This document shows, in pieces, positions 34,052 through 62,365 of a DNA stretch of 64,000 nucleotides; position 1 is the stretch's first letter, and each line of letters starts with the position of its first letter. Location: IMG/VR virus record IMGVR_UViG_3300037067_003221, positions 1 to 64,000 of that record; one strand, written 5' to 3'. A program made the position numbers and the translations under genes. The notes beneath the pieces are model-generated. The model had not been told where the DNA came from. It was given only the letters and a program-made list of their open reading frames with translations, and did no database searches. This stretch comes from a virus (taxonomy: Duplodnaviria > Caudoviricetes).

Positions 34052-34468
34052 GGGATACCTATTTCGCGCTTGACATTGCGAGATTGTCGCGTTTGTCAGT
34101 AATGATTGAATAATCGGATATCCCCTTACAATCAGAGACGCTGACATACTCGATACAACATGCACAGACAGAACAACCCCACCCTAGCAGTATAAGTGGT
34201 ACAATGCAAACAAGCAGCACAGTATGTATAACTGTACTATGTGCTATAATCGGCGCAATTGGTACGATTCCAAGGGTATAGGGATTATAGCAATTGCCCT
34301 ATTTGTAGCAATGGTAATAGTATCTCTGATTGTAATGATTGTCGGGGGCAACTAGGGACAGGGCAGCACAATCATTACAATCAGGCGACAGGGTGCATGA
34401 CCCCGATAATTAGAAGTATCGGTACAAAAGAAAAGGCCGCTATAAGCAGCCTTATTAGCACAATCATA

Positions 34469-34765
34469 CTACTCTGCACAATGAGAGTAATTGGGACAAT
34501 CAGCACAATCGATAGCATCGTGATCTTTGAAGCAATGCACAATATCGGCAGGCATGTTACAAGCGACACGCAAGGCATTACGTGCATCCTCGACACGATC
34601 ATTCAGATCGGCATATTTGGCATAAGCGTCACAATATGCGAAATTGCCACAACCCTTACAGAGCGAAAAGCCCTCACATCTGGCAACTGCGCAACCAGGG
34701 TGTTTTTCGTAATTACCCCTAGCAATGATAGCATCGGCATAAGCCTTAAATTCGGGTGTCATCAT
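34469..34765 (-). CDS. Cys-rich hypothetical protein
   Basis: GGGAG RBS; followed by a hairpin/T-tract terminator at ~34425-34453. Confidence 0.6.
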   Translation of the reverse strand: MMTPEFKAYADAIIARGNYEKHPGCAVARCEGFSLCKGCGNFAYCDAYAKYADLNDRVEDARNALRVACNMPADIVHCFKDHDAIDCADCPNYSHCAE

Positions 34766-36077
34766 AATAAGCTCCCTATTCGTTATAATCCTAATTCATC
34801 GGACAAGGTGGTGCTAATACTGGAAAATGCGTCCCAATCGTTAGAATCGAGATAATCCATAAGACCGTCAACACCGAATGCTGCATTTGCCCCCTCTAAT
34901 AGCAATCGCAATTCCCTCTTAGTAAGGGGTATCGTTTTTTCGTTGATTGTCAATAAAATCATGTTAATCGTTATAACCGGCAAGACCGGAGTTAAGGTTG
35001 TTAATGGCAAAATCCAACATTCCGACATGCTGAGGATTTATCGTTTTATTCCGAATAATCGTTAAATTATCCACGGCTTGCATAATCGTTGCAACAATTA
35101 AATCAGGATTTTCCGCTTGTCTAAACAAATTGTTTAGACCCTGCAAAATCGGCATAACAGGAACCCCCTGTTTGGATGCCGTGAAAAGACGCGCACGCGC
35201 TACAATCGATTTTTCCAGCACCCTTGCGTACATCGGCATAATCGTTACCTCTTGTATAATTGGTTTCCGCAAGCAAAATAGAATTGCCTCTCAAGAGGGG
35301 TAGGCGCACGCATGGTAAAATGCGAATATCCGAAATTGAAGTTATGCGCGTAATAAACCGCGCTTTCCCTACAATCGCATATTTGCACTAAAACGCGATG
35401 ACCGTCACAATCCGAACTATTAGCAAATAAGGCAATCATGGCAATTCCCCTAAAAATGGATTATTCCCAATAAACGCCACCCATAGCCCCGCGAACCTTT
35501 ACAAGCCCTAAATCCCGCAAAATCGATTCGCGCGCTTTTCTCTGCATTTTCGCGCGCTCTTTGGATTTTTTCTTACAACCATCACAAGTGTTTTGACCGT
35601 CAAGACCGTCAAATTCGGCACCACACTTACTACATACTTTCATGGCAAACTCCCTAAAAGTGGTAGAATTGGAATTATCGGTTAATCGTCACAACCGGCA
35701 CAACCCCCTCCACTATGACGATATGCCGCGCGCCCCGAATCGAGAGGGCAGAGAGGGCAAGCGCGCCTTGAATAGTGTCCGATTTTTCAGTATGAACTAA
35801 TTTCGAGAAAACGAAAAATTCTATTGTGAACATGATTTTTCCCTTTCCTGATTGCTTGCCCCTTATATAGTCAATTATGCGCTATAGGGGCGTTTTGTCA
35901 AGTAAATCGGGAATTTTCTAAAAGATTTTTCGGGATATTTCCATTTAGGGGGTGGATTTTAACGATTAGGCAAAATGGCAACTAGTCGAAAATCGTTACA
36001 ACCGACAATCTCGATACAAAGTGAAAAATGCCCTGATTGCTTCCCCTTCCAAAATAGTGGCAAGAGCGCAGGGCAGG

Positions 36078-36172
36078 GGCAAGCAACCGGCAAGCAACCG
36101 GCAAGCAACCGGCAAGCAACCGGCAAGCAACCGGCAAGCAACCGGCAAGCAACCGGCAAGCAACCGGCAAGC
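36078..36172 (+). repeat. Tandem repeat (GGCAAGCAACC) x8.6
   Basis: Perfect 11-bp unit read directly; related GGCAAG/GGGCAGGG tracts at 37958-38048 and 40367-40503. Confidence 0.95.
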
Positions 36173-36559
36173 GATTAGAGGGCAGGGCAGGGGCAAGCGA
36201 TTAGGCAAGATGATACGCAACCCGATAAAATGACGCAAGCGATTAGGCAAGCGATTAGAGGGCTAGAATTAAAAACTCCCCCATAGTAAGTAGAAAATGG
36301 TATGTTCCGATTGTAACAAGTATCGGGGTCAAGCCGGTTGTGGCGGGCGCGTCGATACGACCCCGACAATCGGAACAACCGGCGCAAAAGAAAACGCCGT
36401 TTGCGACCGGCGTTTTCGGAATAAGTGTAATAAATGGTAAATCCGCTCCACAATGTTTCTAAGCCGGATTGACCCCGATTATTCATACAACCGGACCATC
36501 ACGAATAAGTGTCATAAGCGGTAAACTCCCGATTCAAGGGTTAATTGGAAAATTCGTTA

Positions 36560-36916
36560 CTACCTGCCCCCCTCGATTAGCGAATCTAGTTCGCTAGTCG
36601 GAATATCCTGATTGTAACGGCTCACACCACCCCAAAGGTGGATATGGGCCATACAATACGCATAACCGGCTTCTTCGGCAGTACCGGCTTTACTGGTCAA
36701 AGTGATACGAACGTCAGAACCGGAAAGAGCGTCACAAAACCTAATTCGGGCACGATACTTACCATTAGGTAATTCGTCAACACCGTCAAAACCCGTAGGA
36801 TTAGGAAAAACCGGATAAATTGGGCGGGTTGCTTCCCTTGCCCTGCGCGCCCCTAGCTTGCGTATCGCGCTGTTTGCAATCGATAATCTTTCCGTTTTCG
36901 TCAAGGTTGTGAACAT
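36560..36916 (-). CDS. AP2-domain-like DNA-binding protein
   Basis: TGFDGV....NGKYRARI.........TAEEA..AY. Confidence 0.65.
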   Translation of the reverse strand: MFTTLTKTERLSIANSAIRKLGARRAREATRPIYPVFPNPTGFDGVDELPNGKYRARIRFCDALSGSDVRITLTSKAGTAEEAGYAYCMAHIHLWGGVSRYNQDIPTSELDSLIEGGR

Positions 36917-37217
36917 GATTTTTCCCTTTCCCTTGCGTATTGCTTGCCCCTGTCTATATCAAGTATGCAGTATGAAAAGCAATTGTCAAGGAAAATTCCG
37001 AAAATTATTTTTTCAACCCGCAAGCAACTAGAAAACGGTTTATCGAAAATTGGGGATTATCATCTTTGAAATAATCCGCCAATTTTTCCGATAAATGCTC
37101 GATAACCAGTTTTTCCCCTACATCCGAAATTTTCAATTCGGCAAGGATAATCGCTGCAATCGCTTCATAATGTTTTTTCGACATGATTGTTTCAACCGTT
37201 AAAGGCGTTAAAATCGT

Positions 37218-37544
37218 TTAGTCAGTCCAGCGAACCACAAGAGGGGGTAGAATTGTAGGAATTGCGCCATTATTACGCAACCTATGGGTATCAAGGAATA
37301 ATCGGATATTTCCGATTGCATCGGTCATGCTGACAGTAGGGGCTTCACCCCCACCCCACACAATTTCCCCGTTACGAGTGGCATAATTGCTACCATCGGC
37401 GTATAACTCACAATCGACAATCAAGGTTTCGCCGGAATATACCTTAAAAGCGGAAAAATTGACATTTCGGGCGCGCGCCTTCTTAAATAGGATATGCCCT
37501 GTTCTCGCGCTAACCGTTACAGTCCCACTAATCAGAGTAAACAT
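37218..37544 (-). CDS. Hypothetical protein
   Basis: GGAGCGG RBS; MFT start shared with neighbouring ORFs. Confidence 0.55.
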   Translation of the reverse strand: MFTLISGTVTVSARTGHILFKKARARNVNFSAFKVYSGETLIVDCELYADGSNYATRNGEIVWGGGEAPTVSMTDAIGNIRLFLDTHRLRNNGAIPTILPPLVVRWTD

Positions 37545-37964
37545 GATAACCGCTCCAATCGGTAAAGGTGGAATAATCGCTAGTTGGCCCGTCTTTCGGG
37601 GGGTAACATATCGCGGATTGTCTTTTCCGTTTTTTCGACAATCGCCCCGATATACTGTTTGCGCCCCTTGACGATAAGGGCTAGGGCGATTGCTTGCAAT
37701 TCGAGAGGGCTAGTTTTTTTCGTGATAGTGAACATGATTTTTCCCTTTCCTGATTGCTTGCCCCTGTCTATATCAAGTATGCAGTATGAAAAGCAATTGT
37801 CAAGGAAAAATAAATTTTCTAAAAGATTTTTCTAGGTTTTTCTAAAAGAGGGATATGATTTTAACGATTAGGTAAGATAGAAATTTTCAAAAATCGTTAC
37901 AATCGATAATCTCGCTACAAAGTGAAAAGTGGCATAGTTGCCCACCCTACTATATTAGGGGCAA

Positions 37965-38019
37965 GAGGGCAGGGCAAGCGATTAGAGGGCAGGGCAAGCG
38001 ATTAGAGGGCAGGGCAAGC
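37965..38019 (+). repeat. 20-bp tandem repeat (GAGGGCAGGGCAAGCGATTA) x2.7
   Basis: Read directly. Confidence 0.85.
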
Positions 38020-38189
38020 AATCGGCAACCGGCAAGAGGGCAGGGCAATAGTCTGATTATACAGTTTATCGGGGTCATGCAGGCGGGGGCGGAATAATCG
38101 TTACAACCGGCCATTCGAGGATGTGACCCCGAAAATCGTTACAATAGGCGCAAAGAGAAAGTCCGGCATAACCGGACTTACCCATACAA

Positions 38190-38777
38190 TTAGTATTGTC
38201 CGCACATTGAGCGCAATCGGGATTTATCGTGGCAATTGTGACAACCCTTACAATCCAGCAATGTGGTACAACCGTTACAATGCTGACATTCGTTACAGTT
38301 ATGTGAACCGTGACATTTGTAACAGGACTGACAATCGATACAACAGTCGCAACGGATACAGGAGTCACAATCCCTGCAACCACTACAATCTGTGCATCTG
38401 TTAATTCCACTACATATCCGACAACCTTGACAAGTCAATCCGTTGACACATTGGATACAATCCTCACAATTGGTAAGATTCTCACTTCGCTCACAATCAG
38501 TACAGTCGTTGCAATTAGTACAATCGCAACAATTCGTACAGTCACGACAATTGACGCAATTGACGCAACCTACGCAATTGACACAATCGACACAATTGAC
38601 ATTATCGCATTCATCCCGATCAGTCCGCACAACCGTCACATTCGGATTATGCAGAAAATCCTGCATATCCCCGATATTCGTTGGGGGCGCGGTACAATCG
38701 TCACAATTCTCACAGTTTGTACATCCGGTACAATTGTGGCAATTGATATTTCCGTTTGCATCAGGTTCAATCGGCAT
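38190..38777 (-). CDS. CxxCxxC-repeat protein, two modules
   Basis: DANGNINC start; Cys at almost every third residue. Confidence 0.7.
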   Translation of the reverse strand: MPIEPDANGNINCHNCTGCTNCENCDDCTAPPTNIGDMQDFLHNPNVTVVRTDRDECDNVNCVDCVNCVGCVNCVNCRDCTNCCDCTNCNDCTDCERSENLTNCEDCIQCVNGLTCQGCRICSGINRCTDCSGCRDCDSCIRCDCCIDCQSCYKCHGSHNCNECQHCNGCTTLLDCKGCHNCHDKSRLRSMCGQY

Positions 38778-39644
38778 AGGTATATCCCTTCTCAAAACCG
38801 GCAAAATTGTTACAATTAGAATCTAGGACGCTGGAAACCACCCTCCCCTATAGGTGGGGTGATAAACTGTCAAGCGCGGTTTGCAATCCCTCAATTTTCG
38901 CCGATAATAGCTTGATAAATTCGGCGATAATCCCCGCCTTACAAGCCTCAAAACCAGTATGATCGGGCGCGACGGCAGCAACCCGTTTATCCATATCATA
39001 GACAACACCGCCATAATTGGAAAAGCCGTAGTAATAGATACAAAGATCATAATCCGCATGTTCGGCAGTCCAATAACCTAGCATCTTTGCCGGTTGTGGC
39101 GTTATCGCGTGATAGGTCCATTTCAGCATGATAAAACCTCTTGCGTGATTGCTTGCCCCTGATATTCAAGTATAGCCCACAATCGGGGAAAGTCAAGGAA
39201 AATTCCAGAAAATTATCGCAACCTATGCGCGGCCGTTATCAATTCGGTAGCACGCGCCGCATAATCGGAAAATCTGGCAATCAGAATATCATAGGCCCAC
39301 TTGATACAAGCGGCCCTATCGGGAAGGGCGTTACAATCGATAAGATTGTTACCCTCGAAAATATAGGTAGTACAGCCGGAGGAGTAAAACCTAATCGTTA
39401 AGATCATTTTATCCGTTAAATTGATCTTTTCGAGAGTTTTCCCCGTATCTAATTGGAACGGCATAATCGGTATCTCCGTGCTAACCAGGCAATCGTTACA
39501 GACGCTAGTTCCAAGCAACACTGCAAGACCCCGGCAACAAATAGAAACGGCACAATCGTTACAAACAGAACGATCAGCACCACATCTACAAGCGGCCCAA
39601 ACAGCAGCATCATTACAAGCAGAGCAACCGTCATTTCAAGCATA

Positions 39645-40268: not shown

Positions 40269-40629
40269 TCCTCTTGTGTTTTGTTTTCGTTTTCGTTGCG
40301 ATATTCAAGTATAGCCCACAATCGGGGAAAGTCAAGGAAAATTCCGAAAATTATTTTGACGCAATAGCAAGCGATTAGAGGGCAAGCAATCCGGCAAGCA
40401 ATCACAAGCAACCGGCAAGGGGCAAGAGCGCAGGGCAAGCGATTAGAGGGCAGGGAGGGCAAGCAACCGGCAAGAGGGCAGGGGCAACCAGCAACCAGCA
40501 AGGGTCCGGTTGTAACGATCATCGGGGTCATGCCAGCGCGCCCCGCAACCGCTCGATACGACCCCGACAATCAGACTTACTAGCGCAAAAGAAAACCCCG
40601 GCAAAACCGGGGTAATCGTTTCAGGGCTA

Positions 40630-42033
40630 CTAGACGGCAACCTCCTCTCTAACGGTAAGACCGTTACGAGCGACAATCGGGATATAATAGTCAACAAGAT
40701 CAGAAGCGTTACAATCCTCCCAGAGCTTGCAAAGGAACTCCCACTTTTGGGTGGGCGACTTGGCAAGCAGTGTATTCCTTACAATCCGCCAATCGTTACG
40801 AGCGGCCCAATCGATAAAGAGAGATAAGCCCCTAATCCAGTTACAAATCTCCTTACCGTTACAAGTCCCATGATACAAACGAACCTCAAAGGTTGAATGA
40901 TAGACATAGGCGTTAATGTTCAACCATTTATAACGATCCTTACGATGGGCATAACAGGCCCAATCGGTAACGCCGAAAATATCGGACAATTCCGTAGTAT
41001 CCGCTTCACAGTAATGACGCGAACGACGGTCACTATCGACAAAATGCTTCCAAACGTCATACATGAAACGCATGGCACAATAGATAGACTTCATGCTTTC
41101 AGTATTTTCCTCACGCATATCAAAATGCACATGAAGCCCACAACTCCGATTTACGGTAAAACCCTTATCATCGGCAGCATTGCAAAATGCCATAATAGCG
41201 TCAAGACCCTTATCGCCGGAAAGGACGGAAGAAACGAACTCTTTGCCACTAATGCTACCATCGTCCTTTGCGCCAAAATAGAACTCATCCTCTAAATCGC
41301 AATAATCCTCACAAGAGGAAGTTTCGATTTCAACGCCAAATTTCCTATGACCGATACGATTGTAAGAATTGTTATCGTGCGAAAAACGGAGCGCGTCGAA
41401 ATTGTGGTCATTATGGTTACGACGATAACAAGAGCTACAAAGCCCCTCACCCTCATAATCGTCATTATCGTAAGTATCGCCACAACTATCGCAAACGAAA
41501 AATCTGTCACACCAGCACGAATCGCAATAATCGTTACCATCGGAACCCGTCATCGATTCGCGCGTCCATTCGTCACAACCCTCACACTTCACCCAACCGT
41601 TACGACTAGCACAACGGTCGCAATAGACATTATCGCCACAATTGTTCAAATCGTCACCACTGAACCAATCGTTGCAATGGTCACAGCTATGATAGTCGCT
41701 TGCTTCGGCACATTCGATACAGTTGGTATCGCCGTCACAATCGACACAATCGGAATGCCAAGTATGGCACGATTCACATTCCTTAAAATCGTTTTTATCG
41801 GCACAATCGAGACAGTACATAGTACCGTCACAATCGACAAGATCATCGTGATAGGTGCCGCAACCCTCACAAGCGGCATAGCCCTGAGAATCGGCACAAT
41901 CGGGACAGATAACCCGATTGTCAAGCATATCCGAAACCTCACAACCGGGTTTATCGGTTGTATCCCACCATTGCTCACAATCGGGACAATAGGCATCGGC
42001 GGGCGAGCGCGAAATATCCGTTTTAGATAGCAT
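40630..42033 (-). CDS. Putative amidoligase (COOH-NH2 ligase, Amidoligase_2-like) with 12 N-terminal CxxC motifs
   Basis: FGVEIE, DGSI..EFVS.VL.G, CGLHVH, RY..LN, TFEVR. Confidence 0.8.
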   Translation of the reverse strand: MLSKTDISRSPADAYCPDCEQWWDTTDKPGCEVSDMLDNRVICPDCADSQGYAACEGCGTYHDDLVDCDGTMYCLDCADKNDFKECESCHTWHSDCVDCDGDTNCIECAEASDYHSCDHCNDWFSGDDLNNCGDNVYCDRCASRNGWVKCEGCDEWTRESMTGSDGNDYCDSCWCDRFFVCDSCGDTYDNDDYEGEGLCSSCYRRNHNDHNFDALRFSHDNNSYNRIGHRKFGVEIETSSCEDYCDLEDEFYFGAKDDGSISGKEFVSSVLSGDKGLDAIMAFCNAADDKGFTVNRSCGLHVHFDMREENTESMKSIYCAMRFMYDVWKHFVDSDRRSRHYCEADTTELSDIFGVTDWACYAHRKDRYKWLNINAYVYHSTFEVRLYHGTCNGKEICNWIRGLSLFIDWAARNDWRIVRNTLLAKSPTQKWEFLCKLWEDCNASDLVDYYIPIVARNGLTVREEVAV

Positions 42034-42331
42034 AATCGCAACCCTCTTGCTATGGGTTATGGTTTCGCTAGATATTCAAGTATAGCATACTTTGCGGGAA
42101 AGTCAAGTAAAATTCTTTCCCTGCCCTGATAATCAAGTATAGCCCACAATTCGGGATTGTCAAGGAAAATTCCGAAAATAATTTATTCAATATACTATAC
42201 AAGCGCGGAATCGAGTAGGGTGGGGTTGTATCGAATATCGGGGTCAAGACGATTGTAGCGGTGTTGCCTGTCTGGACCCCGACAACCCTAACAACCCCGA
42301 TTATTGACACAATCGATTTTGCGTTTTTCAC

Positions 42332-42359
42332 TTGACAACCGGCTTTTCCGTGCTATAAT
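42332..42359 (+). promoter_or_regulatory. Lone plus-strand sigma70 promoter in the early region
   Basis: TTGACA-16-TATAAT with extended TG. Confidence 0.7.
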
Positions 42360-42670
42360 GTAAACAGTGGCGAAAAGGCAACATGCCAAAACGCAACATC
42401 CGAAAGTAGGGTTCCGGCTGTAACGATTATAGGCCCTACTTTGCGGTTCTACCCACTCTCTGTGAGGGGAGGGCACGATTTCAGGCCCTACATTGCGACC
42501 TCAAAAACTCCCCAGGTAAATTTTCCGAACAAACCTGCTGCCGACGAACGCGCGGCGTATTTCCCAGGTAAATAATTCGCAGATTGCGAACTCAGCGTGA
42601 CCCCGATAAATGGCCCGATAAAGAAATAAAATAGGGCGTTGGGATGAATGAATAATCACCCCACGCCCGA

Positions 42671-42736: not shown

Positions 42737-43233
42737 ATTTAACACGCTAACCAGTCAGACTGTTGCAAACTACTGCGCCCGGCATTCAGCGGGCAATATG
42801 AACGGGGAGGTTATGAAGCGGTTAATTCCGCGAACGGGGGTTAGATACAGCCACCGACAATATACATTATCGTTTGCGGCCAAACCATTTTTAAGAAGTC
42901 CCGTTGTTCCCTCTCGTTGTTCCTTTTCGTTGTTGCATTGTCTTAACATTTTAATTATACCTCATTTTCAGGCTTTGTCAAGTAAGTTGCGTCAGATTTT
43001 TTGGAATTGTCTCGCCATAGAATTTTGGACAAAACCACGCAGCATTTTGTCAGTAGATTTTTCGGTCGGGGTTGATCGGATTATCGGGGTAAAGCGATGG
43101 GCGAAAAGTTTTGGCACGATTCTGACCCCGACATTTGGCATAACTGTACATAAAAATACCCCGTCCATAGTCGGGGTATCAACACGCTTCTAAGCGCGTT
43201 TGAAATTGCCGTAAATCCTTACCACATAAGCAC

Positions 43234-45888: not shown

Positions 45889-46179
45889 TCAGGCGGTTGT
45901 CAAGTGTCTATGGCAACGACTCAGCATATATTCGATGCGCGAGCAATCGAAACAATCATCACATTCCAGACACAACTCACAATCGTTGCAATAGGTACAA
46001 TTCGTACAGGTGGTCAGACCCCCAGAGGCTCGGCAATTAGTACAGCCGTCACAGAAGTCACATCTGATACAGTTTTCACAATTGGAACAGTTGACGCATC
46101 CGAAACAATTGCTACAATTCTCGCAATTGAAACAGTTGACGCAGTTAGTACAGTTGATATTGCCGTCGCTATCGGTCAT
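45889..46179 (-). CDS. CxxCxxC-repeat protein
   Basis: MTDSDGNINCTNCVNCFNC... Confidence 0.7.
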   Translation of the reverse strand: MTDSDGNINCTNCVNCFNCENCSNCFGCVNCSNCENCIRCDFCDGCTNCRASGGLTTCTNCTYCNDCELCLECDDCFDCSRIEYMLSRCHRHLTTA

Positions 46180-46799
46180 TGGCAGTTTCCCAATACTTGA
46201 CCATCCGAGTAACCTACTTGCCAAGCCTCTTCCCATGCCATACGCGCAAGGGATTTAGCCCGCTCCCTATCTTGTATCCGGTTGAAAATAAATAGGAGTG
46301 GGCTTTGCTCTATCTTTTCATCCCACCATGCGTCAAAGACTTCATCCATTGTTTACCCTTTCGCTTCGGGATGCAAGGCGTAGCGCGTTATGCAAGCTAA
46401 CATCCCGGCCTATCCGCACTTTGATTGCTCCTGCTACCAGCATCACCGCCCTACGGCGGGCAGTCCGAATGTTAGCAGAGTTGTACCGTTTGTAAAGGCC
46501 GAATGAATCGCACGTTACGCGCCATTCGTTTCCTTCCAAGTTGTCAACGTAAAATCGCAAGGTTCCAAAGGTGCCAGTTGCGTTTTGTCCGCTCCGGTCT
46601 ATGTCCCATTGTATGGCGTTTACCATTAGTAGTCCTCTTCCATACTGCCGTCAGAATAGCCCTCACTCCATCCTTCGGAATGACCCCGATTCCAGGCAGC
46701 AAGCCAAATTTCATGGGCGAGTTCCTTACCCTCAACCATATCGGGGTAATGTTCAAGCCACCACAATTCAAAATCTCGATTCATAGTTACCTCTTTCAG

Positions 46800-49681: not shown

Positions 49682-49911
49682 ATTTTAATTATACCTCATG
49701 TTTTCTAAAAGTCAAATCAAGGTCCAATTATTCCTATCGTCGGGGTCAAGTGAACGACCCGCCCGGCACTCATTCCGACCCCGACAATCAGACCTACCGG
49801 AAACAATAAAAGGCGGGGCTAATGATGACCCCGCCTAACGGCATTACCGGCATTACCACCCAATAGTTACGGCTAAGGTATCCGGTTTCAGTCCCCGTAA
49901 CAGTCTGCCGA

Positions 49912-54939: not shown

Positions 54940-55084
54940 ATTTCAACTATACCATAGTTTAGGCGATTGTCAAGCAGAAAATTCAAGAATCGATTGTAGT
55001 GGTCATCGGGGTCAAGTGGCGATCCAACCGCGAAGATCGCTGGACCCCGACAATCAGAATAACCGTGCAAAAGAAAACGGCCAG

Positions 55085-55369
55085 TTAAAAGCCGTCAATA
55101 TCGACCGCATGGCGAAGATTGCTACTAAACCTACAATCGACACAATGAGAAGATAGGTCGCAGGCACGACAACTGCTACAAGCATCACAATTTACACATA
55201 TATCGCAATCAATACAACCAATGCAATCGTTGCAGTTGCGACAATCAATACAACTATTACAACCATAGCACTCAGTACAGTTGTGACAACTATCGCAGTC
55301 AGTACAATCTCTGCAATTGTAGCAATTGAGGCATCGAGTACAATTGACATTCCCGTGTTCGTCAGGCAT
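55085..55369 (-). CDS. CxxCxxC-repeat protein
   Basis: MPDEHGNVNCTRCLNC... Confidence 0.75.
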   Translation of the reverse strand: MPDEHGNVNCTRCLNCYNCRDCTDCDSCHNCTECYGCNSCIDCRNCNDCIGCIDCDICVNCDACSSCRACDLSSHCVDCRFSSNLRHAVDIDGF

Positions 55370-55673
55370 GTTTCATCCTCCACGCACAACCGTTGCAATA
55401 CTCGCAATAGTCGCTGCCCTGCAAATCGCACGTACTGGTAATATCGCGGCAAACGTGCGAATGCACACAATCGTCAAGGTTGTAGGCCCAGGTGCAATCA
55501 ATGCAATTGTTCGACGTATCAAGGCGGTAACAGTCTTTGCAGCCGTGGCAATTGACGCAAGAAACACAGTGATTGCAGTCCGTGCAATTATGGCAACCTA
55601 CGCAACTCTCGCAGTCAGTACAGTTGCGACAATCGATACACCCGTGGCAATTTATATTTCCGTTTTCATCCAT
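55362..55673 (-). CDS. CxxCxxC-repeat protein
   Basis: MDENGNINCHGCIDC... Confidence 0.75.
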   Translation of the reverse strand: MDENGNINCHGCIDCRNCTDCESCVGCHNCTDCNHCVSCVNCHGCKDCYRLDTSNNCIDCTWAYNLDDCVHSHVCRDITSTCDLQGSDYCEYCNGCAWRMKHA

Positions 55674-55907
55674 TTAATTGTTTCGCAGGAAAGAAAAGGC
55701 TCTTGTAATTCGGAGGCAACGGACACAGGATGAACAACTAATACACTCAATACAGAAGTGACAATCTTCGCATCCGACACAACCCCGACACTGGTTACAG
55801 TCCGTGCAATGATCGCATCCGATGCAATTCGTGCAGTCGGTGCAATTAAAGCAATCACGGCAATTCACACAATTGACATTGCCATTTTCATCGGGTTGTC
55901 GGCTCAT
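55674..55907 (-). CDS. CxxCxxC-repeat protein
   Basis: MSRQPDENGNVNCVNC... Confidence 0.75.
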   Translation of the reverse strand: MSRQPDENGNVNCVNCRDCFNCTDCTNCIGCDHCTDCNQCRGCVGCEDCHFCIECISCSSCVRCLRITRAFSFLRNN

Positions 55908-56163
55908 TGCGAGTACAATCAAACTTCTCTAGGAGTCTCAGGCATTTTTTACAGTAGTTGCATAGGCGGCATTGTATCGAGAATGAACAAAACCAGCAAT
56001 CGACACACCCGCGACAGTCTCGACAATCATCGCACCTAACGCACCCGATACAGCCCCAGCAACTATTGCAGCCAACGCAGTTTTCACAGTTGACACAATT
56101 CGTGCAGCCGGGGCAGTTGATACAGCCGATGTTTCCGTTTTCGTCTTTCACCCGGCCCGGCAT
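55888..56163 (-). CDS. CxxCxxC-repeat protein
   Basis: MPGRVKDENGNIGCINC... Confidence 0.75.
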   Translation of the reverse strand: MPGRVKDENGNIGCINCPGCTNCVNCENCVGCNSCWGCIGCVRCDDCRDCRGCVDCWFCSFSIQCRLCNYCKKCLRLLEKFDCTRNEPTTR

Positions 56164-56316: not shown

Positions 56317-59132
56317 TTATACCTTAGTATGCTGAGAAGTCAAGAATTTCTGTGCCTCATTCCACCATGCCCGGAACATTTCCAGAGCATAGACCCCGGC
56401 ATCCTGCTTAATCAGCGAAAGCGGCGTATCTTCCGGGTAGGAATTGCCGGTAAATACATCGTCACCATTCAGATACATATCTAAGTGAATGAGTCCAGTT
56501 ATCAACTGTTCGACTTGGCAACGGAATGGTCCGATTTCAAACGAGTCGATTATTTCCGAACCATCCCACATTCCAGCTTTCATGGCGTGTACTCCAAAAC
56601 GGCTTCAAGTTCGTTCTCCATGATACATTGCTGCATCAAGTGGGACATTTCGCGGGGGCTAAACCCCTGCAATACCCACCGTTGAAACAGCGGTAGCACC
56701 ACGGCGTTAAGTTCGTTATACAGTTTCGCCCCGTCGTTAGTGAAGCGAAGATCGGTAGGTGAAAATAGCGGTTTCATTAAATCCCCTCACAATGGTCGTT
56801 GTGAAATTCCTCAAGACCCCGAACCACGGCACTGTTCAACTTACGCAACTCTTCGACATAATCGTTAATCATGCCGCCGTCGCGGGCAACAGCCCCGGCC
56901 ATATCGCATACGTGAATCTGCCGCATCAGCAGCCTACGCACTTTCGGCATTTCCCGCATCGTGGGAATAATCAAAGAGGCTTGCGCCTTGCGGGCAACCG
57001 CTTCAAGTTGTTCAACGTGAGTCATCGGGTTAATCTCTTTATGTGAATGTCGATAGCGTCGCGCAACTCATACAGCGTAGCCGCGCGTGTTTCTTCGCTT
57101 ACTTTACGGTCAAACGAAAATCGTTCTACCGCGAGAAATACGTCAGACATTTTTTCGGCAAGTTCAACAATCTCTTCAACCATGATTCATCGTAAATGAT
57201 TTCGAGTTTTCGGACAGTAACATGGACAGGAAAATCGGGGCAAAATAGCGGGGTGCCGTATCGAGTCGGCTCAATCGCTTGTTGCTTGGCTTTGGGGATT
57301 CGCTTTTCAGCGTCCCGTTCGCTAGTAAAAACGGTTGACGTTCGGAGCGACTTGTGACCGTCGCCCACTAGGCCGTCGGTCCCCTCGATTTCAAGTTGAT
57401 AAACATATTTCATGGCAGCACCACGTTTGCTACATCCCTAGTGGAGAGTATCGCACCCTCAGAATCGGCTGTTAAAATTCGCATCAAATCATTGTAGGTA
57501 GTAAATGAATGCTCACGGGTAGCACGGTAAAAGCGGCGGGATGTAGCAATCATAAATGGTGAAGTATGATTTTCTACCCAAAAACGATATACCTCTTCGC
57601 TAATATACCCGCCGTTGAAAAACCCCGTCAGATATAATTTTCCATTTTCTCGTAACTCGAATGCCCAACAATGCGGGCTTTCCGACTCACACAAATCAAC
57701 TTGTACGCCGTGAAACTTGGCAATCAGAATGTTTTCTACATCCTCTAACCACTTTGCCGGGCGCAACGGAATACGGAATTGGTCGGCTATACTCATTTCG
57801 GGGTTCCCATAACGCCACCTTTATAGAGGCGTACTTTCGTGAAATTGAACGGGTCCGAAAACCGCTTCATATTGAACAACTGGCATAACCGGCTACGGAT
57901 AACCTCGACGGAATCATCGGCCCGGTTAATCGTTCGCATCCAACCATCCATATCGGAAGTCAGATAGAAGATTTCCCCTTCCCCGGCGATATACTCCGCA
58001 CAGATGCCGATGATTTCCTTATGGCCGTCGCCGTCAATAACGCCGATTGCCACCTTAAAATCCTTGTCATCGTCCAACGCCGACCAAATAAGGGCGGCGG
58101 GATGCTGCGAAGAATCAACCGGCTCATTGTCCTGTACCAGCACAAAGTAGGGTTCGGATACCATAAGTTCACCCGGAACGTCACAGTCTTGTAAGTGAGT
58201 AATCATATTCAATTATACACCACGCCGGGCGAAAGTCAAATTATTTTCTGGCAAATTTGTTGAAGAACCCTGAATCGGGGCCATACACAAACCCATCGTG
58301 AGTATCTTTACCCCAAGTGGGTTCCATTTCGATAGCCGTCGGCGGGAGAATAAAGTCATCCCGATTCAATGTCAATGTCAACGCCGTACTCAATGCCTTT
58401 GCTTCATACCGGGCGGGGCCAATCTGCTTAGTGATTGTTACCGGCCCGCGAATCAGGATTGCGGCAAGGCCCGGCCCAAAGCGGTAAACGCTGCATTTCA
58501 GGTACACTTGCCGACCGACAAGCGAAAAGTTTTGAGTGATTACGAATGACATAGTTCAAACCTCGATCTTGGAACGACTCCCACCCACATAGGGAAGGCG
58601 ATAGCAAACCAACCGGGGAAAGGTTCCCCGATGATACGACCCCGATAGAACTCACCATCGAAAGGTTCGATAAAAATCACAGTTTCGCCTAGCATGGCAC
58701 AACCCTCAAGCCGATCAAATCATTATCGGGCAACGCCCCGCGAGCGAAGAAACATTGGAGGATTGTCTTGACGGAGGCAACAACACTTTCGGCACCCTCG
58801 ACATAATGAAAACATTCCGGGCAGTTAGGATTAGCGCCATATACGCGATAACCCCGCTTACCCCATTGGCTTGGCTTATTGCCAAGATCAATAACGGCCA
58901 CATCTTCTCGGCAACCGTCAATGTCGGCCTGAACCAACCACATTTGCAAATCCCACCGATGAAACCCCTCCAATAACATTTCGGGAGTGTCGGCTATGGC
59001 AAGCAACGTATCCTCTTTATTCGCTATTTCACGCAAGAAGAATCTAATCATTGTTTCCCTTAATATCGGAGGTAAAGAAAAATGCCTCACCATCGGATAA
59101 CGGCGGCAGTGGTTTTCGGCCCTTATCGACAA
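56317..59132 (-). other. Run of small hypothetical CDSs
   Basis: Abutting minus-strand ORFs of 65-150 aa. Confidence 0.55.
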
Positions 59133-59602
59133 TCTTGATAAATTGGACCAGCCACATAACGCATAGTGCGACTATAAGCACTTGCAGGATCGTAAGAAAC
59201 ATTATGAATACTCCTATGACATTCCGGCCCAAAGCCGTCGATATGCTCGGTAACTTTACGCCCGCACTTTCCGCACCGGCCTGCCCATTCGATAGCATAA
59301 CCAGCGGGCAACTTATCAACCCAAATACATTTCAACGCCCACGCCACGATATTGTACATCAATTCGCCGTGTCGAAAGCGGCTTGTTCGGGTAGTAGCAA
59401 TACGCCCGTTGTCAAGCATCATGCCCACATACTGGTACTCTTTCAGCGGGGCATCGTGATCGCTTACCGTAATCCAGTAAGGTTTCGGCATACCCGCGCG
59501 AGGCCGTCCCAATTGCACCCTTACATAAAAGGTTGTGCCGTTAGGATTGCTCACCGTAAAGACGGCGTTACCAGCGTGTAGATATTCAGGTGTTATTTTC
59601 AT
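59123..59602 (-). CDS. Hypothetical protein with C-terminal Zn finger (DUF6011-like)
   Basis: GRCGKCGR..T....GFGPEC. Confidence 0.55.
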   Translation of the reverse strand: MKITPEYLHAGNAVFTVSNPNGTTFYVRVQLGRPRAGMPKPYWITVSDHDAPLKEYQYVGMMLDNGRIATTRTSRFRHGELMYNIVAWALKCIWVDKLPAGYAIEWAGRCGKCGRKVTEHIDGFGPECHRSIHNVSYDPASAYSRTMRYVAGPIYQDCR

Positions 59603-59698
59603 GGTCTATACTCAATTATACACTATGTTTCACTGGTTGTCAAGTCAATCTTGTTGCCAATAAAAATGCCCCCTTGCGGGGGCTACTCTTGCGAAGCA

Positions 59699-59875
59699 TT
59701 AGCGGCACGAATCCACTTCGTCACATTCGTCACAATCTTCGTTTTCGTCATCCTGCATTTCACGGCGGGGGCGGGCAAGTCGGCTTGTGGAGTCATTGCC
59801 ACGCCGACGCTTGCTAATCCAGTACCTCACAAGGGGGAAGTCGCCAAGAAGCAATTTCAGCCCCTCCCACTTCAT
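59699..59875 (-). CDS. 58-aa ORF resembling the missing C-terminus of the upstream amidoligase
   Basis: MKWEGLKLLLGDFPLVRYW...; ATGA overlap and GAGGGAG RBS. Confidence 0.5.
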   Translation of the reverse strand: MKWEGLKLLLGDFPLVRYWISKRRRGNDSTSRLARPRREMQDDENEDCDECDEVDSCR

Positions 59876-60798
59876 GTTATTGCTCCCTCGAAATAGGCAT
59901 CAAGTTCGTCAAGGGTTTTGGTTGCGGCCCAGTCACAAAACCGGGTATGGATTTTAATCCAGTTGCAAATTTCCGCCTTGTCAATGCTCCCCTGATAGAG
60001 GCGGATTTCATACGTGCCGTGCCGGTTGTAGGCAGTCAGGTTGCACAACTCGTAACGATTTTGACTGTCGCAGTAGTCGCGCCAATCATGCGCCCGCTCG
60101 ACATTACCACGGGTCCGGGTTGACGGGCGGCAATAGGTGCAATTGTCGGCCCGAAACGGGTCAGCCAGCTTACGCCAAGCCTTATCCGTAAGCAGATAGG
60201 CATAGGCAATTGACTTCAAGGAATCGGCATTTTCGTCCCGCATATCCAAGTGGATATGCAAGCCGCAATCGCTATCAACCGACCAACCTTGTTCGCGGGC
60301 ATTGTCACAAAAACGCTCAATCTCGGCAAGCCCTTCATCCCCGTACAAAATGGGGGAGATAAATTCCATGCCACTAATGGAGCAATCATATTTCGCCCCA
60401 AACAGGGTGTTGTTTCGGAGGGTGCGATAACCGGCACAAGTGGCGGTTTCGATTTCCACGCCAAACTTTCGTTTGCTTCCGATAACCCCGTAGTTGGCAA
60501 TGGCAACATCCATCGGGGTGGGATTCCAAACATTCAGCCGGTCACGGCAGTTTCGGCAGATACGAACGACTTCGCCCGTGTCATGCTCAAAATTGTAACC
60601 GTCGAAATTTTCATTCAACGTGCCACATTCAGCACAGAGGAAATGCCGCTCTGCATAGCATCGCGGGCACCACCAATTTCTGTAGGAATCGGCAACGCAA
60701 TCGTTGAAAGACCCGCCGCAACAACGGCATCGTTGCGTTTCGGTTGTACGCCGGAGAGTTGGGCGTTCAAGTACCGGGGCATTGGTTAAAGCTGGCAT
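59872..60798 (-). CDS. Putative amidoligase with 4 N-terminal CxxC motifs
   Basis: FGVEIE, DCSISG.EFISPIL.G, CGLHIH, GTYEIR. Confidence 0.8.
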   Translation of the reverse strand: MPALTNAPVLERPTLRRTTETQRCRCCGGSFNDCVADSYRNWWCPRCYAERHFLCAECGTLNENFDGYNFEHDTGEVVRICRNCRDRLNVWNPTPMDVAIANYGVIGSKRKFGVEIETATCAGYRTLRNNTLFGAKYDCSISGMEFISPILYGDEGLAEIERFCDNAREQGWSVDSDCGLHIHLDMRDENADSLKSIAYAYLLTDKAWRKLADPFRADNCTYCRPSTRTRGNVERAHDWRDYCDSQNRYELCNLTAYNRHGTYEIRLYQGSIDKAEICNWIKIHTRFCDWAATKTLDELDAYFEGAIT

Positions 60799-60920
60799 TA
60801 CGTTCTCCGCAAGAGGAATGTTTTAGTATATTAAAAGTATAGCACAGATTTTGTGATTGTCAAATTAAAATTTAGTCAGAGGGGGCGGCACGATTGCCGC
60901 CCCCTCAATCGACCTGACAA

Positions 60921-61826
60921 TTATTCGATCTTGGAATGTTCGCTTTCGCAAGCGTAGCTATCCCACGCATCCCGCCATTCGCCGTCGTAGTCACGCGCGG
61001 CCTCTTCCGATTTATCCTTCTTACTGGAATCCTTCTTGCTATCGTAATAGTACGTACTACCCGTAGCATCGTAATCGTCATGTTCGTAAGTGGTATAGCC
61101 CTTACGCTTCCAGTTATTCGTATTGGAACAACCGTACTTGCGGGTCCAATAATCCGGGGCAGCCGAGGTAAAGCCTGCCACCTTTTCCATTTCCACAACA
61201 CCCTCTTTGAGGGAGAACTTCATCGTTTCCCCTTCCGCGAGAGTCACAAAATTTTCGGTATGACCGACCACGCTTTCCAGGTGGGACCACGCCGAAGAAT
61301 AGTAATAAGTACCATTCTCGTCACAAGCGATAGACAGATCGCCATTGTGAACTTGCAGATAAAAGGATTCGCCGTCAAACCAGCTAACACCCCAATATCC
61401 GGTAATTTCGCCCCACGCCGTTTGATAATCGCCTTTCGCTTTGTTCAGCGTGTCGAATAACATTTGCGAATCGACCACATAGCCGGTCGGGGCGTCGATC
61501 ATACCGTTATGCGCCCCGATGATATTGCCGTATCGAAACGGGTGGCTGTTTTGACGGTTGACTTTGCCACGGGTGGCATAGCGAGTATGACCCGCGATAA
61601 ACCACGCCTTTTCGCGCTTTTCGTTGCCGTTCAAAGAGTCTCGCAACCAATTGGTCACGTTTTCCTTGCGTAACGCTTCCGATGGGTCGGCGGCAGTCTT
61701 AATCATCTTGCCGGTCGAATCGAAGAACCCGATGCTATCGGTTCCACGCTCACGATTCGCCCACGCCAACGCCTTGACGTTGCCAAGGTTCCAATTAGTT
61801 CCAATCGCTCCGAAAATTCCACACAT
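60921..61826 (-). CDS. Class II (Ntn) glutamine amidotransferase
   Basis: MCGIFG, RG.DS.G, GHTRYAT.G, NSHPF, AHNG, VDS. Confidence 0.9.
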   Translation of the reverse strand: MCGIFGAIGTNWNLGNVKALAWANRERGTDSIGFFDSTGKMIKTAADPSEALRKENVTNWLRDSLNGNEKREKAWFIAGHTRYATRGKVNRQNSHPFRYGNIIGAHNGMIDAPTGYVVDSQMLFDTLNKAKGDYQTAWGEITGYWGVSWFDGESFYLQVHNGDLSIACDENGTYYYSSAWSHLESVVGHTENFVTLAEGETMKFSLKEGVVEMEKVAGFTSAAPDYWTRKYGCSNTNNWKRKGYTTYEHDDYDATGSTYYYDSKKDSSKKDKSEEAARDYDGEWRDAWDSYACESEHSKIE

Positions 61827-61850
61827 GAATTAGATTCCTTTTACAACCAG

Positions 61851-61932
61851 TACAGTGATGATTCGCTAAGTTTACTACAAACTCAGTCTTGCGAACTAGG
61901 GCGGGCTGTTGTGTCACTCGCCCCTCACTATA
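61851..61932 (-). promoter_or_regulatory. Structured 5' leader (three-way junction) of the amidotransferase gene
   Basis: P1 TATAGTGA/TCACTGTA, P2 GGGGCG/CGCCCT, P3 GTTCG..CTGAGTTT/AAACTTAG..CGAAT. Confidence 0.5.
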
Positions 61933-62000
61933 TTAACTATACCACATTTTGAGCAAAAGTCAAATGATTTTTTCAAAATACCCCGTAGGTAGCACCACCA

Positions 62001-62198
62001 TTAGGTTCGTGGTGCATTCAACCAATCGGCACCGTATTCTTTCATTAACCGGCCACATAAGACCGTAATTTCATCGCAACGGGCAATAGGTAGGCCGGTC
62101 ATGTATTCAATGTCATAACCCTGTTGACCGTCAAGACAGTCAAGCAAGGCATAAACGGCTTGTCTCGCAAGGTCGGCATCGATAGGTTTGTTGCTCAT
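62001..62198 (-). CDS. Hypothetical protein, leaderless
   Basis: ATG 6 nt after TATAGT. Confidence 0.6.
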   Translation of the reverse strand: MSNKPIDADLARQAVYALLDCLDGQQGYDIEYMTGLPIARCDEITVLCGRLMKEYGADWLNAPRT

Positions 62199-62365
62199 AC
62201 TTTAACTATACCATGTTTTCGGCGAAAGTCAAGAGAAAAATTAAAAATCGATTGTGACGGTCATCGGGGTCGAGTGGTCGGAACTCACCGTGGACCCCGA
62301 CAATCGGATAATCTAGCGCAAAGAAAAGGCCGGGAGGGGCAGCTTCCCGGCCAGCACACTAGGAA

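Follow-up and report, generated by a model that had tools for sequence, protein, structure and literature searches.

A dispersed inverted-repeat element in the early region of an uncultured phage: candidate sites for a phage-encoded regulator

Arrangement of the elements in the early region

The uncultured phage has a genome of 147,030 bp, in which the early region is divided into about nine transcription units by inverted pairs of a short box. Nine inverted CGGGGTC/GACCCCG core pairs were counted within the window (the whole stretch of DNA analysed, 64,000 nt), and a tenth pair of cores, at 65039/65067, lies slightly beyond its end (element 10, genome positions 65022–65090). This count bears out the sequence-only reading of the same DNA, which had reported at least nine such dispersed elements. 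When the 22-mer consensus was searched with up to three mismatches, five matches were obtained against a chance expectation of 0.01. A weight matrix 24 nt wide, derived from the arms, was then scored over the whole 147,030-bp genome and over shuffled genomes; it gave 31 arm matches in the former and 0–2 in the latter. It was observed that 29 of the 31 were confined to positions 33,902–65,161 and that none lay below 33,902, as had been noted for the first 33 kb. Exact copies of the core numbered 33 in the 31.3 kb inside the region vs 13 in the 115.7 kb outside.

All nine elements in the window were assigned to the minus strand, which is the transcribed strand, and along it the order is terminator, R arm, spacer, F arm, promoter. 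The fixed succession of gene stop, terminator, element and promoter described earlier was thus recovered, with an intrinsic terminator ahead of eight of the nine elements and a sigma-70-type promoter after all nine. The R arm begins 0–4 nt past the T-run of the terminator. In four elements, the −35 of a near-consensus sigma-70 promoter is located 5–14 nt past the F arm; in two further elements the promoter is about 55 and 75 nt away, and in the remaining three it is reached after 75–400 nt of TTGCC-rich tandem repeats. The distance from the F-arm core to the −35, with the core upstream, was 32–40 nt in five elements.

The spacers between the arms measured, in element order, 49, 28, 48, 30, 29, 32, 29, 29 and 21 bp, exactly as first listed. 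They were unrelated to one another and to the rest of the genome, except for one extra arm-like unit in each of the two long spacers (elements 1 and 3). Element 1 (34326–34422; F arm 34326–34349, R arm 34399–34422) has, in minus-strand reading, a terminator upstream at 34453–34433 and a promoter downstream at 34311–34284. Element 2 (36307–36382; F arm 36307–36330, R arm 36359–36382, the latter being the best-scoring arm at 34.9 bits) stands after the terminator of the AP2-fold gene described below, and is followed by about 400 nt of TTGCC-type tandem repeats and the promoter at 35901–35874. Terminators at 38179–38159 and 40613–40595 accompany element 3 (38053–38148; F arm 38053–38076, R arm 38125–38148) and element 4 (40506–40583; F arm 40506–40529, R arm 40560–40583), respectively. 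Element 5 (42222–42316; F arm 42222–42245, R arm 42275–42298) has a weak third arm, 42293–42316, that overlaps the R arm; it is the sole element in the window with no upstream terminator and is adjoined by a perfect plus-strand promoter at 42332–42359. Element 6 (43068–43147) has a variant core, CGGGGTA, in its F arm (43068–43091), an R arm at 43124–43147, a terminator at 43180–43155 and a promoter at 42981–42954. The corresponding positions are F arm 49724–49747, R arm 49777–49800, terminator 49836–49811 and promoter 49715–49688 for element 7 (49724–49800), and F arm 54990–55013, R arm 55043–55066, terminator 55096–55076 and promoter 54973–54946 for element 8 (54990–55066). In element 9 (62248–62316; F arm 62248–62271, R arm 62293–62316), a terminator hairpin lies immediately upstream and the promoter is at 62232–62205.

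Arms also occur outside these pairs. Two of them, 33902–33925 on the minus strand and 34028–34051 on the plus strand, form a back-to-back pair with the cores outward and 102 bp apart, occupying the non-coding zone where the plus- and minus-strand gene blocks converge. Solo arms in sense orientation were found on the minus strand at 36471–36494 (21.5 bits), past the stop of the AP2-fold gene but ahead of that gene's terminator, and at 42599–42622 (21.3 bits). It may be noted that the region holds about 25 near-consensus promoters in 30 kb, that some 15 promoters of equal strength have no element, and that the terminator–promoter junction 59683/59643 also has none.

The element matched no described family as far as searched. 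As a host repeat family it was absent from all prokaryotic genomes among 185,579 species, where 48 single matches were recovered, mostly by chance, in GC-rich coding DNA; no host REP or MITE family was recovered, a match to a known one being what would have told against the sequence-only reading. When the window was searched against Rfam, tRNA alone reached the gathering score. No tyrosine or serine recombinase, integrase or transposase is encoded in this phage genome.

Sequence, polarity and spacing of the arms

From its outer end to the core, an arm reads CCGATTGT-n-CCGATTGT-CGGGGTC. The core was invariant in 58 of 60 tabulated arms from six genomes, with strong bias at the adjacent positions, and GACCCCGAC was present in 34 of the 60. 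The element is polar, as its two arms differ systematically: the core is preceded by TTGT on the terminator-side arm and mostly by TCAT or TTAT on the promoter-side arm. Of the arms first described, about 22 bp long and lying opposite their reverse complement, the consensus was matched, but the arms are degenerate and poor complements of each other. Complementarity was 9.47 of 22 positions within an element vs 9.60 of 22 between elements (permutation p 0.78), and the lack of an excess within elements argues against a stem maintained by compensatory change. The arms are selected as sequence, not as stem. Their grammar is also flexible, with solo arms, tandem cores 18 bp apart and back-to-back pairs, as well as three-arm forms in the relative L149 and arrays of direct copies in the relative G002; such an arrangement is typical of protein sites. 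The word GATTGT occurred 74 times on the sense strand vs 25 on the antisense strand.

The spacers had been thought to cluster at helical-turn steps. The steps are in fact about 9 bp, which is the sub-repeat of the arm itself: for 46 non-redundant elements, the Rayleigh p was ~2e-4 at 9 bp vs 0.12 at 10.5 bp. Helical phasing is not supported, and neither is the idea, tied to it, of a single oligomer that bridges the arms.

Relatives and the candidate binding protein

The same element was found in five IMG/VR records, with 0 matches for a reversed control pattern, and in 18 of 22 non-redundant metagenome loci bearing a homologue of P0001 (below). The cores in those loci numbered 89 in 66.8 kb vs about 5 per control 7-mer. 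In two loci whose DNA is 86% identical (L101 and L103), orthologous elements kept their position and arms, while the spacers had changed through a 9-bp indel and through displacement of the core by 18 bp. The sites are specific to a family of uncultured phages.

P0001 (36560–36916, minus strand) is a single-copy gene for a protein of 118 aa with a predicted AP2/ERF-like fold, and elements 3 and 2 flank its transcription unit. Its AlphaFold2 model was of moderate confidence (pLDDT 68). The best Foldseek match was 1gcc_A, the AtERF1–DNA complex (probability 1.00, rmsd 2.3 over 55 columns), and a VIA-align comparison with 48,161 representative chains placed AP2 domains in all top four positions (Z 6.7, 6.6, 6.0 and 4.6). 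Like AP2/ERF domains (AtERF1, 1gcc/2gcc; WRI1, 7wq5; TEM1, 7et4), the model has a three-strand sheet plus a helix, and the sheet arginines are conserved: R55, R57 and R70 are invariant and R59 nearly so among 49 family members. Unlike those domains, it carries an extra N-terminal helix and C-terminal helices. AP2 was also the top Pfam family among the members, yet below threshold (5 of 49, best E 3e-4), and P0001 itself did not reach the AP2 threshold; none of the 120 homologues listed, of 148 found, carried an annotation. Compared with the AP2 domains of phage and cyanobacterial HNH endonucleases (PMC6781369, PMC5318435), P0001 is a stand-alone protein with no HNH nuclease domain.

The arm core, a G/C run often with CCGAC, is of the site type reported for AP2 domains. 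Those of HNH endonucleases bind poly(G)/poly(C) runs according to a passage of PMC6781369 that cites Magnani 2004, and CCGAC is the core bound by DREB-type AP2 domains (PMC7444197). Homologues of P0001 occurred in four of the five related records, each within the element region, and in every long related contig the gene was located among elements. In the fragmentary DNA of two relatives (G004 and L149), elements were present with no P0001 homologue. TCCT preceded the core in 11 of 47 arms of the clade whose P0001 first strand reads WGCVGVD, and in none of 150 core copies from eight non-redundant loci of the PTGFDGVD clade (149 with L085 and L088 collapsed). This co-variation is one evolutionary event, and the co-occurrence of gene and sites is confounded by shared ancestry. 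When 30 ORFs of the region were scanned against Pfam, no recognised DNA-binding domain was detected. Judged by its modelled fold and by the co-localisation of gene and elements in relatives, P0001, already named as a candidate from the sequence, is the best candidate and the most likely binder of the arms; a small zinc-ribbon protein, P0002 (35461–35643), or a host factor could act instead.

Possible roles of the elements

The elements could be recombination modules of the kind known as PeSL in T4-type phages, a reading that we consider unlikely. A composite of about 100–150 bp (terminator tail, arms and promoter), present in some ten copies, would mainly be a homology patch for the exchange, insertion and loss of cassettes made up of promoter, gene and terminator, and gene conversion among the copies would conserve the sequence. 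As in PeSL, the conserved junctions join a terminator to an early promoter that is strong, of sigma-70 type and preceded by an AT-rich tract (PMC2839356, PMC4122927), and a G-run is followed by a C-run; units are bracketed by inverted arms with cores outward, resembling terminal inverted repeats. Arms of one genome share lineage-specific features, consistent with concerted evolution, and dispersed repeats of 90–220 bp including arms and promoters were seen in G002 and the locus L086. Moreover, ORFans abound in the region, as they do in the regions called hyperplastic in T4-type phages (PMC2839356), and such repetition through it makes the elements potential sites of homologous exchange. In the relative G001, the same genes stand in blocks of different order and several boundaries coincide with elements, but at about 45% amino-acid identity this coincidence is not specific, as any rearrangement would by then end in intergenic DNA. 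Within-genome exchange leaves unexplained a 7-bp core invariant across phages so distant; gene conversion would homogenise the spacers, which turn over freely; and arms flanking a cassette were 10.9/22 alike vs 9.8/22 for non-partner arms, which was not significant. The PeSL stem-loop is itself the terminator and usually lies between −35 and −10 or over the −10 (PMC2839356, PMC4122927), whereas here a separate intrinsic terminator lies ahead and the arms show no stem co-variation. With that structural feature missing and no tyrosine or serine recombinase encoded, the cassette shuffling suggested earlier is a possibility only, and plausible as a side role.

That the arms pair in read-through RNA or single-stranded DNA, for RNase III-type processing, as a back-up terminator or as an attC-like folded recombination site, seems improbable. 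The elements do fold as hairpins (−25 to −37.5 kcal/mol, z −1.6 to −3.7), the transcribed strand being more stable by 15 kcal/mol in total over the five elements tested; in several, the F arm gives way to a T-rich tract; and arm mismatches were more often G–U compatible on the sense strand (3.3 vs 2.1 in this genome, 3.5 vs 1.0 in G001, 4.0 vs 1.2 in G002). The G–U bias was equally present in comparisons between elements, however, which fits the sense-strand G+T skew, and neither excess pairing within elements nor compensatory change was seen. Little RNA should include an element that lies past a terminator and ahead of the next promoter; its stem is GC-rich next to the loop, the wrong place in an intrinsic terminator; no such stem can form from solo, tandem or back-to-back arms; and the Rfam result speaks against it too. 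Integron attC sites are likewise imperfect inverted repeats round a variable centre at cassette boundaries, but this phage has no integrase, its cassettes have their own promoters and terminators, and its arms show no sign of a folded single-strand form. Equally doubtful is a role as host-protein sites (gyrase or IHF) at which supercoiling between tandem units under heavy transcription would be eased or partitioned, where the density of promoters should make torsional stress high. In enterobacterial REP/BIME elements, two repeat types that differ slightly are paired in inverted orientation across a variable linker; the pairs lie past terminators, in the gaps that separate transcription units, and the phage elements share this layout. 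They are not a host family, however, their arms are not individually palindromic hairpins as REPs are, and they are specific to a phage family and near a predicted phage DNA-binding gene; the same motif occurs in phages, probably with different hosts, that span 41–58% G+C in the DNA fetched. Least credible of all is a selfish, non-autonomous MITE-like element, or decayed fragments of Cys-x-x-Cys repeat genes, with no phage function. The region's many CxxC-array genes repeat their Asp-Cys-x codons with the same word as the 9-bp sub-repeat of the arm, GATTGT-nnn, and arms are gained or lost in 9-bp and 18-bp units. Against this stand the absence of an encoded transposase or recombinase, the strict placement relative to terminators and promoters, the orthologous positions and invariant core kept across relatives, and the restriction to one functional region.

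We tentatively favour the view that the elements are double-stranded-DNA sites of a phage regulator that marks or insulates the early units. Protein binding was among the roles first proposed, and it is preferred for the near-invariant core, the lack of excess complementarity, the solo, tandem and back-to-back arms, and the retention of arms while spacers drift. A close parallel is with the stoperators and operators of Cluster A mycobacteriophages, bound by L5 gp71, Bxb1 gp69 and the TipsytheTRex repressor (PMC9283540). There too, one phage protein has a short asymmetric site that recurs many times, in promoter regions and in the short spaces between genes, and the proposed action blocks elongation as well as initiation. 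Stoperators span the whole genome, whereas the phage elements are limited to a 31-kb early region and are mainly inverted pairs round a variable spacer, after terminators; the fold of the candidate binder is AP2 rather than helix-turn-helix plus stirrup, and since the phage encodes no integrase, an immunity repressor is excluded as the binder. Sense and antisense arms numbered 40:8 in G002, where co-orientation with transcription is strong as for stoperators, and 16:7 in G001, but only 13:10 in this genome, and the bias is reversed in L149. Such inconsistent orientation between genomes counts against the regulator-site reading, as do the element-less strong promoters and junction. An F arm upstream of the promoter, with no overlap, is unusual for a simple repressor, and an activator is not obviously needed, since the promoters are already near consensus.

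Under the regulator-site reading, each arm would be an asymmetric double-stranded-DNA site of about 15–24 bp, with the invariant core after one or two 9-bp CCGATTGT-n units, for a sequence-specific phage-encoded protein, presumably P0001. With one arm directly past the terminator of a unit and an inverted arm just upstream of the UP/−35 region of the next promoter, each early unit between 34 and 65 kb would be bracketed by bound protein. The bound arms would form a boundary that halts polymerases reading through the terminator and shields the next promoter from upstream transcription, and early promoters may be switched off once the binder accumulates.

Paired arms at the junctions between early transcription units

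The virus record is 147,030 bp long, the window being its first 64 kb, and both GC skew and ORFs place the genes from ~34 to 65 kb on the minus strand. In the window, nine convergent pairs CGGGGTC...GACCCCG were found, with spacers of 49, 28, 48, 30, 29, 32, 29, 29 and 21 bp, exactly as listed in the sequence-only reading; a tenth core pair lies beyond the window at 65039/65067. The arms were turned into a 24-nt weight matrix, which matched the genome at 31 places, compared with 0–2 in shuffled genomes. All but two of these (29/31) fell within 33,902–65,161, the others being solo arms outside the cluster, at 84.6 and 143.4 kb. No arm match was found in the first 33.9 kb, which bears out the earlier remark that the first 33 kb had none. 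Within the region the bare 7-mer core reached ~9 times its density elsewhere in the genome; control 7-mers of the same composition were not enriched. All paired arms were intergenic.

On the transcribed strand, the order at a junction is hairpin and T-run, terminator-side (R) arm, spacer, promoter-side (F) arm, AT-rich tract and promoter. The terminator, in which a T-run comes after a GC hairpin, is often TTTTCTTTTGCGC. The R arm begins 0–4 nt past that T-run, with CCGGTTnTnCCGATTGT leading into CGGGGTC; the spacer sequence is unique to each junction; and the F arm consists of GACCCCGAT followed by ACAATCG. The promoter after the AT-rich tract is a near-consensus TTGACA-16/17-TATAAT, often with an extended −10. 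The order terminator, element, promoter, described earlier for most elements, held for eight of the nine and failed at element 5, which is without a terminator. At elements 1, 7, 8, 9 and the tenth, the F arm's outer end comes to within 5–14 nt of the −35, and the core is 32–40 nt upstream of that box. For two elements, the promoter is ~55 and ~75 nt away, and at elements 2, 3 and 4 it is preceded by TTGCC-rich tandem arrays.

Across six genomes, 60 pooled arms gave the consensus CCGATTGT-n-CCGATTGT-CGGGGTC, that is, a 9-bp unit repeated twice and then an invariant core. The four bases preceding the core are TTGT in the terminator-side arm and mostly TCAT or TTAT in the promoter-side arm, and because the two arms differ at this position, the element is polar. 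A promoter within the element was also considered, as the F arm often has TTGACC and then TACAAT. It was rejected because the two words are 11 bp apart, too short for sigma-70.

Between 34000 and 64000, ~25 minus-strand promoters agree with the sigma-70 consensus at 10–12 of 12 positions; a 16-bp spacer is present in nearly all of them. Only promoters that come after terminators are marked by elements. The sole clear exception is the junction 59683/59643, where a strong terminator (GCCCCCGCAAGGGGGC and a T-run) is followed directly by a 12/12 promoter with no element between them. Almost every small gene on this strand has its own promoter, and strong terminators are far fewer. A perfect plus-strand promoter (TTGACA-16-TATAAT with a TG extension, 42332–42359) adjoins the R arm of element 5. 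It opposes all the neighbouring genes, no convincing plus-strand gene lies downstream, and its product may be an antisense or small RNA.

Other repeats accompany the junctions. The TTGCC-rich arrays of elements 2, 3 and 4 occupy the gap that separates the F arm from the following promoter (36078–36258, 37964–38019 and 40381–40419), and their units are GGCAAGCAACC (8.6 copies), a 12-mer (2 copies), a 20-mer (2.8 copies) and another 12-mer (3.5 copies). An ORF at 35996–36250 that spans one of them is probably spurious. Relatives carry arrays of their own sequence in similar placement, namely (GGCAACA)n at positions 1600–1717 of metagenome locus L079, right behind a homologue of the AP2-fold protein P0001, and, in the related record G005, (GGGAGCC)n behind an element (L068:12328–12410). 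In another relative, G003, a 54–55-bp unit is present three times in tandem between two elements (L065:2164–2380), each copy with TTGACA; a promoter module may have been triplicated here.

Many of the region's proteins are made up of, or start with, long Cys-x-x-Cys arrays such as CxNCxDC repeats (38190–38804, ~41737–41977, 45889–46236 and 55085–56163). In these genes the Asp-Cys codons GAT-TGT, a word identical to that of the arm sub-repeat, recur every 9 bp; GATTGT occurs 74 times in sense and 25 times in antisense within 33.9–65.2 kb. At the convergence of the plus and minus gene blocks there is an 88-nt inverted repeat (33411–33498/33577–33664), 76% complementary and with 78 nt between its arms, which could serve to terminate transcription from both sides or as some other cis element. 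After it, ~650 nt are non-coding and rich in ACAATCG-type words.

Arms as stems or as double-stranded sites

If the arms formed a true stem, partner arms should match better than non-partner arms. This was not observed: complementarity was 9.47/22 within elements and 9.60/22 between elements (permutation p 0.78), and a stem kept by pairing was therefore rejected. Since complementarity within and between elements was alike, compensatory change of the kind found in a structured RNA or an RNase III site was likewise lacking. An excess of G-U-compatible mismatches on the sense strand was seen in three genomes; it was equal in between-element comparisons and is consistent with that strand's G+T skew. 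Folding energies of the elements barely differed between the strands, and at gathering score no Rfam family other than tRNA matched the window.

The arms also occur in arrangements that are unable to form a stem. These include solo arms, tandem arms 18 bp apart, back-to-back arms (33902–34051 in this phage, and in locus L085), three-arm groups in the related phage-like contig L149, and direct-copy arrays near promoters in the related record G002. Because this flexible grammar is combined with an invariant core, the arms are read as protein sites in double-stranded DNA. The best reading of the sequences, which we hold tentatively and at slightly less than an even chance, is that a sequence-specific phage regulator would bind these sites, marking or insulating early units.

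The spacers had been described as helically phased, a claim that was not upheld. In 46 non-redundant elements, the spacers clustered at 21–24, 27–33, 36–41, 47–49 and 53–58 bp, with a Rayleigh peak at 9 bp (p ~2e-4); the value for 10.5 bp was not significant (p 0.12). Each of the two long spacers of this phage contains one additional arm-like unit. Two relatives' loci, L101 and L103, are collinear and 86% identical in DNA, with elements at the same positions, conserved arms and diverged spacers; between their orthologous elements, one pair differed by a 9-bp spacer indel and the other by an 18-bp shift in core position. The 9-bp peak, the internal arm-like units and these orthologue changes together led us to read the spacing steps as gain or loss of arm units. 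Judged from such comparisons, the steps do not reflect two bound proteins held on one helix face. When the spacers were considered as captured foreign or phage DNA, no matches were found beyond the internal arm-like units.

A candidate binder with an AP2 fold

Transcription factors of plants and apicomplexans are the best-known proteins with an AP2 fold; in phages, homing endonucleases are. The sequence-only reading had named an AP2 protein at 36560–36916 as a candidate binder. This protein, P0001 (118 aa, single-copy), gave no match to the Pfam AP2 family PF00847 at E ≤ 1 and so did not reach the gathering score; among 49 members of its family, five matched below threshold (best E 3.1e-4). 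In a PDB profile search, AtERF1 (ERF1) came first, with E 0.085–0.23. The AlphaFold2 model (pLDDT 68) has strands at 46–48, 54–62 and 68–77 and a helix at 80–98, giving the three-stranded antiparallel sheet on a helix that is a feature of AP2/ERF domains. The best Foldseek match was the ERF1–DNA complex 1gcc_A (TM-score 0.71 relative to the target, rmsd 2.3). VIA-align, run against 48,161 chains, ranked four AP2 domains highest (Z 6.7–4.6, unrelated rows ≤3.3), among them 7wq5_B (Z 6.7) and 2gcc_A (Z 6.6, rmsd 2.0 over 61 residues, 30% identity). Model and structure searches support the AP2 fold. R55, R57 and R70 on the sheet are invariant and R59 is nearly so; in the alignment, these arginines fall on the strands that ERF1 turns towards DNA.

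Among the relatives, P0001 is the best-conserved protein of the region (44–68% identity), and its homologue was present in four of five related records, always inside the element cluster. Elements flank the gene on both sides in 4/5 of the phages that have it. In metagenome loci found through P0001, the core was present in 18 of 22 non-redundant ones, with 89 cores in 66.8 kb compared with ~5 for each control word; this co-occurrence of gene and site is confounded by common descent, and the nearest relatives are distant. None of the best 120 of 148 homologues carried an annotation.

Binding of AP2 domains to poly(G)/poly(C) runs has been reported (PMC6781369). CCGAC has been reported as an AP2-domain target (PMC7444197), and GACCCCGAC occurs in 34 of the 60 arms. 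In the clade whose P0001 has WGCVGVD in place of TGFDGVD in its first strand, TCCT precedes the core in 11/47 arms; in eight non-redundant loci of the PTGFDGVD clade, it precedes 0/150 core copies. This co-variation with strand 1, a single evolutionary event, is suggestive support for P0001 as the binder. No other DNA-binding domain was found in 30 neighbouring ORFs with Pfam and PHROGs. An alternative candidate is P0002, a putative nucleic-acid binder of 60 aa (35461–35643, minus strand) with a CxxC...CxxC zinc ribbon and a very basic tail, which is conserved at 55–58% in two related records (G001 and G002) and adjoins elements there. On the evidence of the sequences and the structural model, P0001 is probably the protein that binds the arms.

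Distribution, known systems and a possible role

The element was found in five IMG/VR records of 67–175 kb, where a reversed control pattern gave zero matches. In each record the elements cluster in a stretch of a few to ~20 kb, and wherever its genes could be matched this stretch was rich in amidoligases. In common with the window, these phages have small ORFans, a glutamine amidotransferase and paralogous amidoligases, at ~35–67% amino-acid identity. Sense and antisense arms number 13:10 in this phage, 16:7 in G001, 40:8 in G002 and, reversed, 3:7 in L149. In the 175-kb G002, there are 48 arms in 20 kb, of which 40 point with transcription. Its direct arm arrays near promoters lie within a dispersed 90–220-bp repeat (for example at 3380–3640, 5360–5700, 7900–8230 and 9690–10080 of its fetched region L064).

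The view that the element belongs to no described family was sustained, as none was found among 50,697 phage records (DNA), host genomes or Rfam (tRNA only). A P0001 homologue was also absent from those phage records, in which cultured phages gave only distant amidoligase and RtcB matches and none was a relative, and a literature search on the motif words returned primers only. In a scan of 185,579 prokaryotic species, one genome per species, no genome had multiple copies, which speaks against a host REP/MITE family. There were 48 single matches, nearly all in GC-rich coding DNA. The same scan gave the phage-like contig L149 (PWRZ01000207.1), binned with a Syntrophomonadaceae MAG; a P0001 homologue, P0006, is listed with a Candidatus Omnitrophota MAG. 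Both assignments are either host hints or binning errors.

Dispersed regulator sites are known in a few temperate phages, as P1 C1 operators, L5 stoperators and phiC31 conserved inverted repeats, and T4-type phages have composite promoter–terminator cassettes. The nearest functional precedent is provided by the stoperators of Cluster A mycobacteriophages, a short asymmetric site present in many copies in intergenic and promoter regions (PMC9283540), and such a many-copy short asymmetric site is also present here. Unlike stoperators, which are genome-wide in a temperate phage and bound by its immunity repressor, the sites here are confined to 33.9–65.2 of 147 kb. They are also laid out differently, their candidate binder has another fold, and the phage apparently lacks lysogeny. 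The orientation of stoperators correlates with the direction of transcription; in this phage the orientation bias is weak (13:10, with inverted pairs the rule). REP/BIME elements share only inverted pairing with variable linkers; the arms here are direct 9-bp repeats and a core rather than palindromes, and they form no host-chromosome family.

Mobility by recombination was weighed against regulator binding. No tyrosine or serine recombinase was found in the genome, and PF00589 had no match in the CheckV 100%-complete genome, whereas all control genomes matched. Integron- or transposon-like mobility was rejected on this ground and because the arms flanking a cassette were not significantly more alike than other arms; unlike for integron attC sites, no integron integrase is encoded here. 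Shuffling of promoter–gene cassettes at PeSL-like elements had also been proposed. PeSL is defined as a conserved composite in which a terminator stem-loop is combined with a sigma-70-like early promoter and its AT-rich upstream tract (PMC2839356), and a composite of terminator, element, AT-rich tract and TTGACA-16/17-TATAAT is indeed found at elements 1, 7, 8, 9 and the tenth. The region is rich in ORFans, and its junctions are repeated patches of some length. With PeSLs, cassette mini-circles form and the breakpoints of indels and replacements between close relatives fall at the motif; here, this phage and G001 have their blocks in different order with boundaries at elements, at only ~45% amino-acid identity, and the 86%-identical pair L101 and L103 is collinear. 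However, the stem-loop of PeSL is the terminator and lies between −35 and −10 or over the −10, whereas here the inverted repeat is upstream of the −35, a separate hairpin and T-run come before it, and there is no selection for arm pairing. PeSL-like recombination leaves unexplained both the invariant core across distant phages and the free drift of the spacers, and survives as a possible side role.

Under regulator binding, a protein bound behind each terminator and ahead of the following promoter would bracket the early units; the bound arms would block read-through and would shield or switch the next promoter. It is conceivable, if rather unlikely, that a stand-alone AP2-fold protein and polar 15–24-bp sites constitute a boundary system of uncultured 100–175-kb phages, with roadblocks or insulators bracketing every early unit. 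What sets this case apart is a conserved polar paired site exactly between a terminator and the next promoter, in a large, apparently virulent, uncultured phage, together with a candidate binder that has an AP2 fold. If the binding is real, it would provide a testable model of how a row of very strong early promoters in large phages is spared mutual interference or jointly switched off, and a family of at least 148 unannotated proteins would gain a function. If the boundary system is real, the bracketing arms would turn promoter–gene–terminator units into portable cassettes. Such a system would, if true, give bacterial viruses their first AP2-type global regulator of transcription, and prokaryotes a counterpart of insulator elements.
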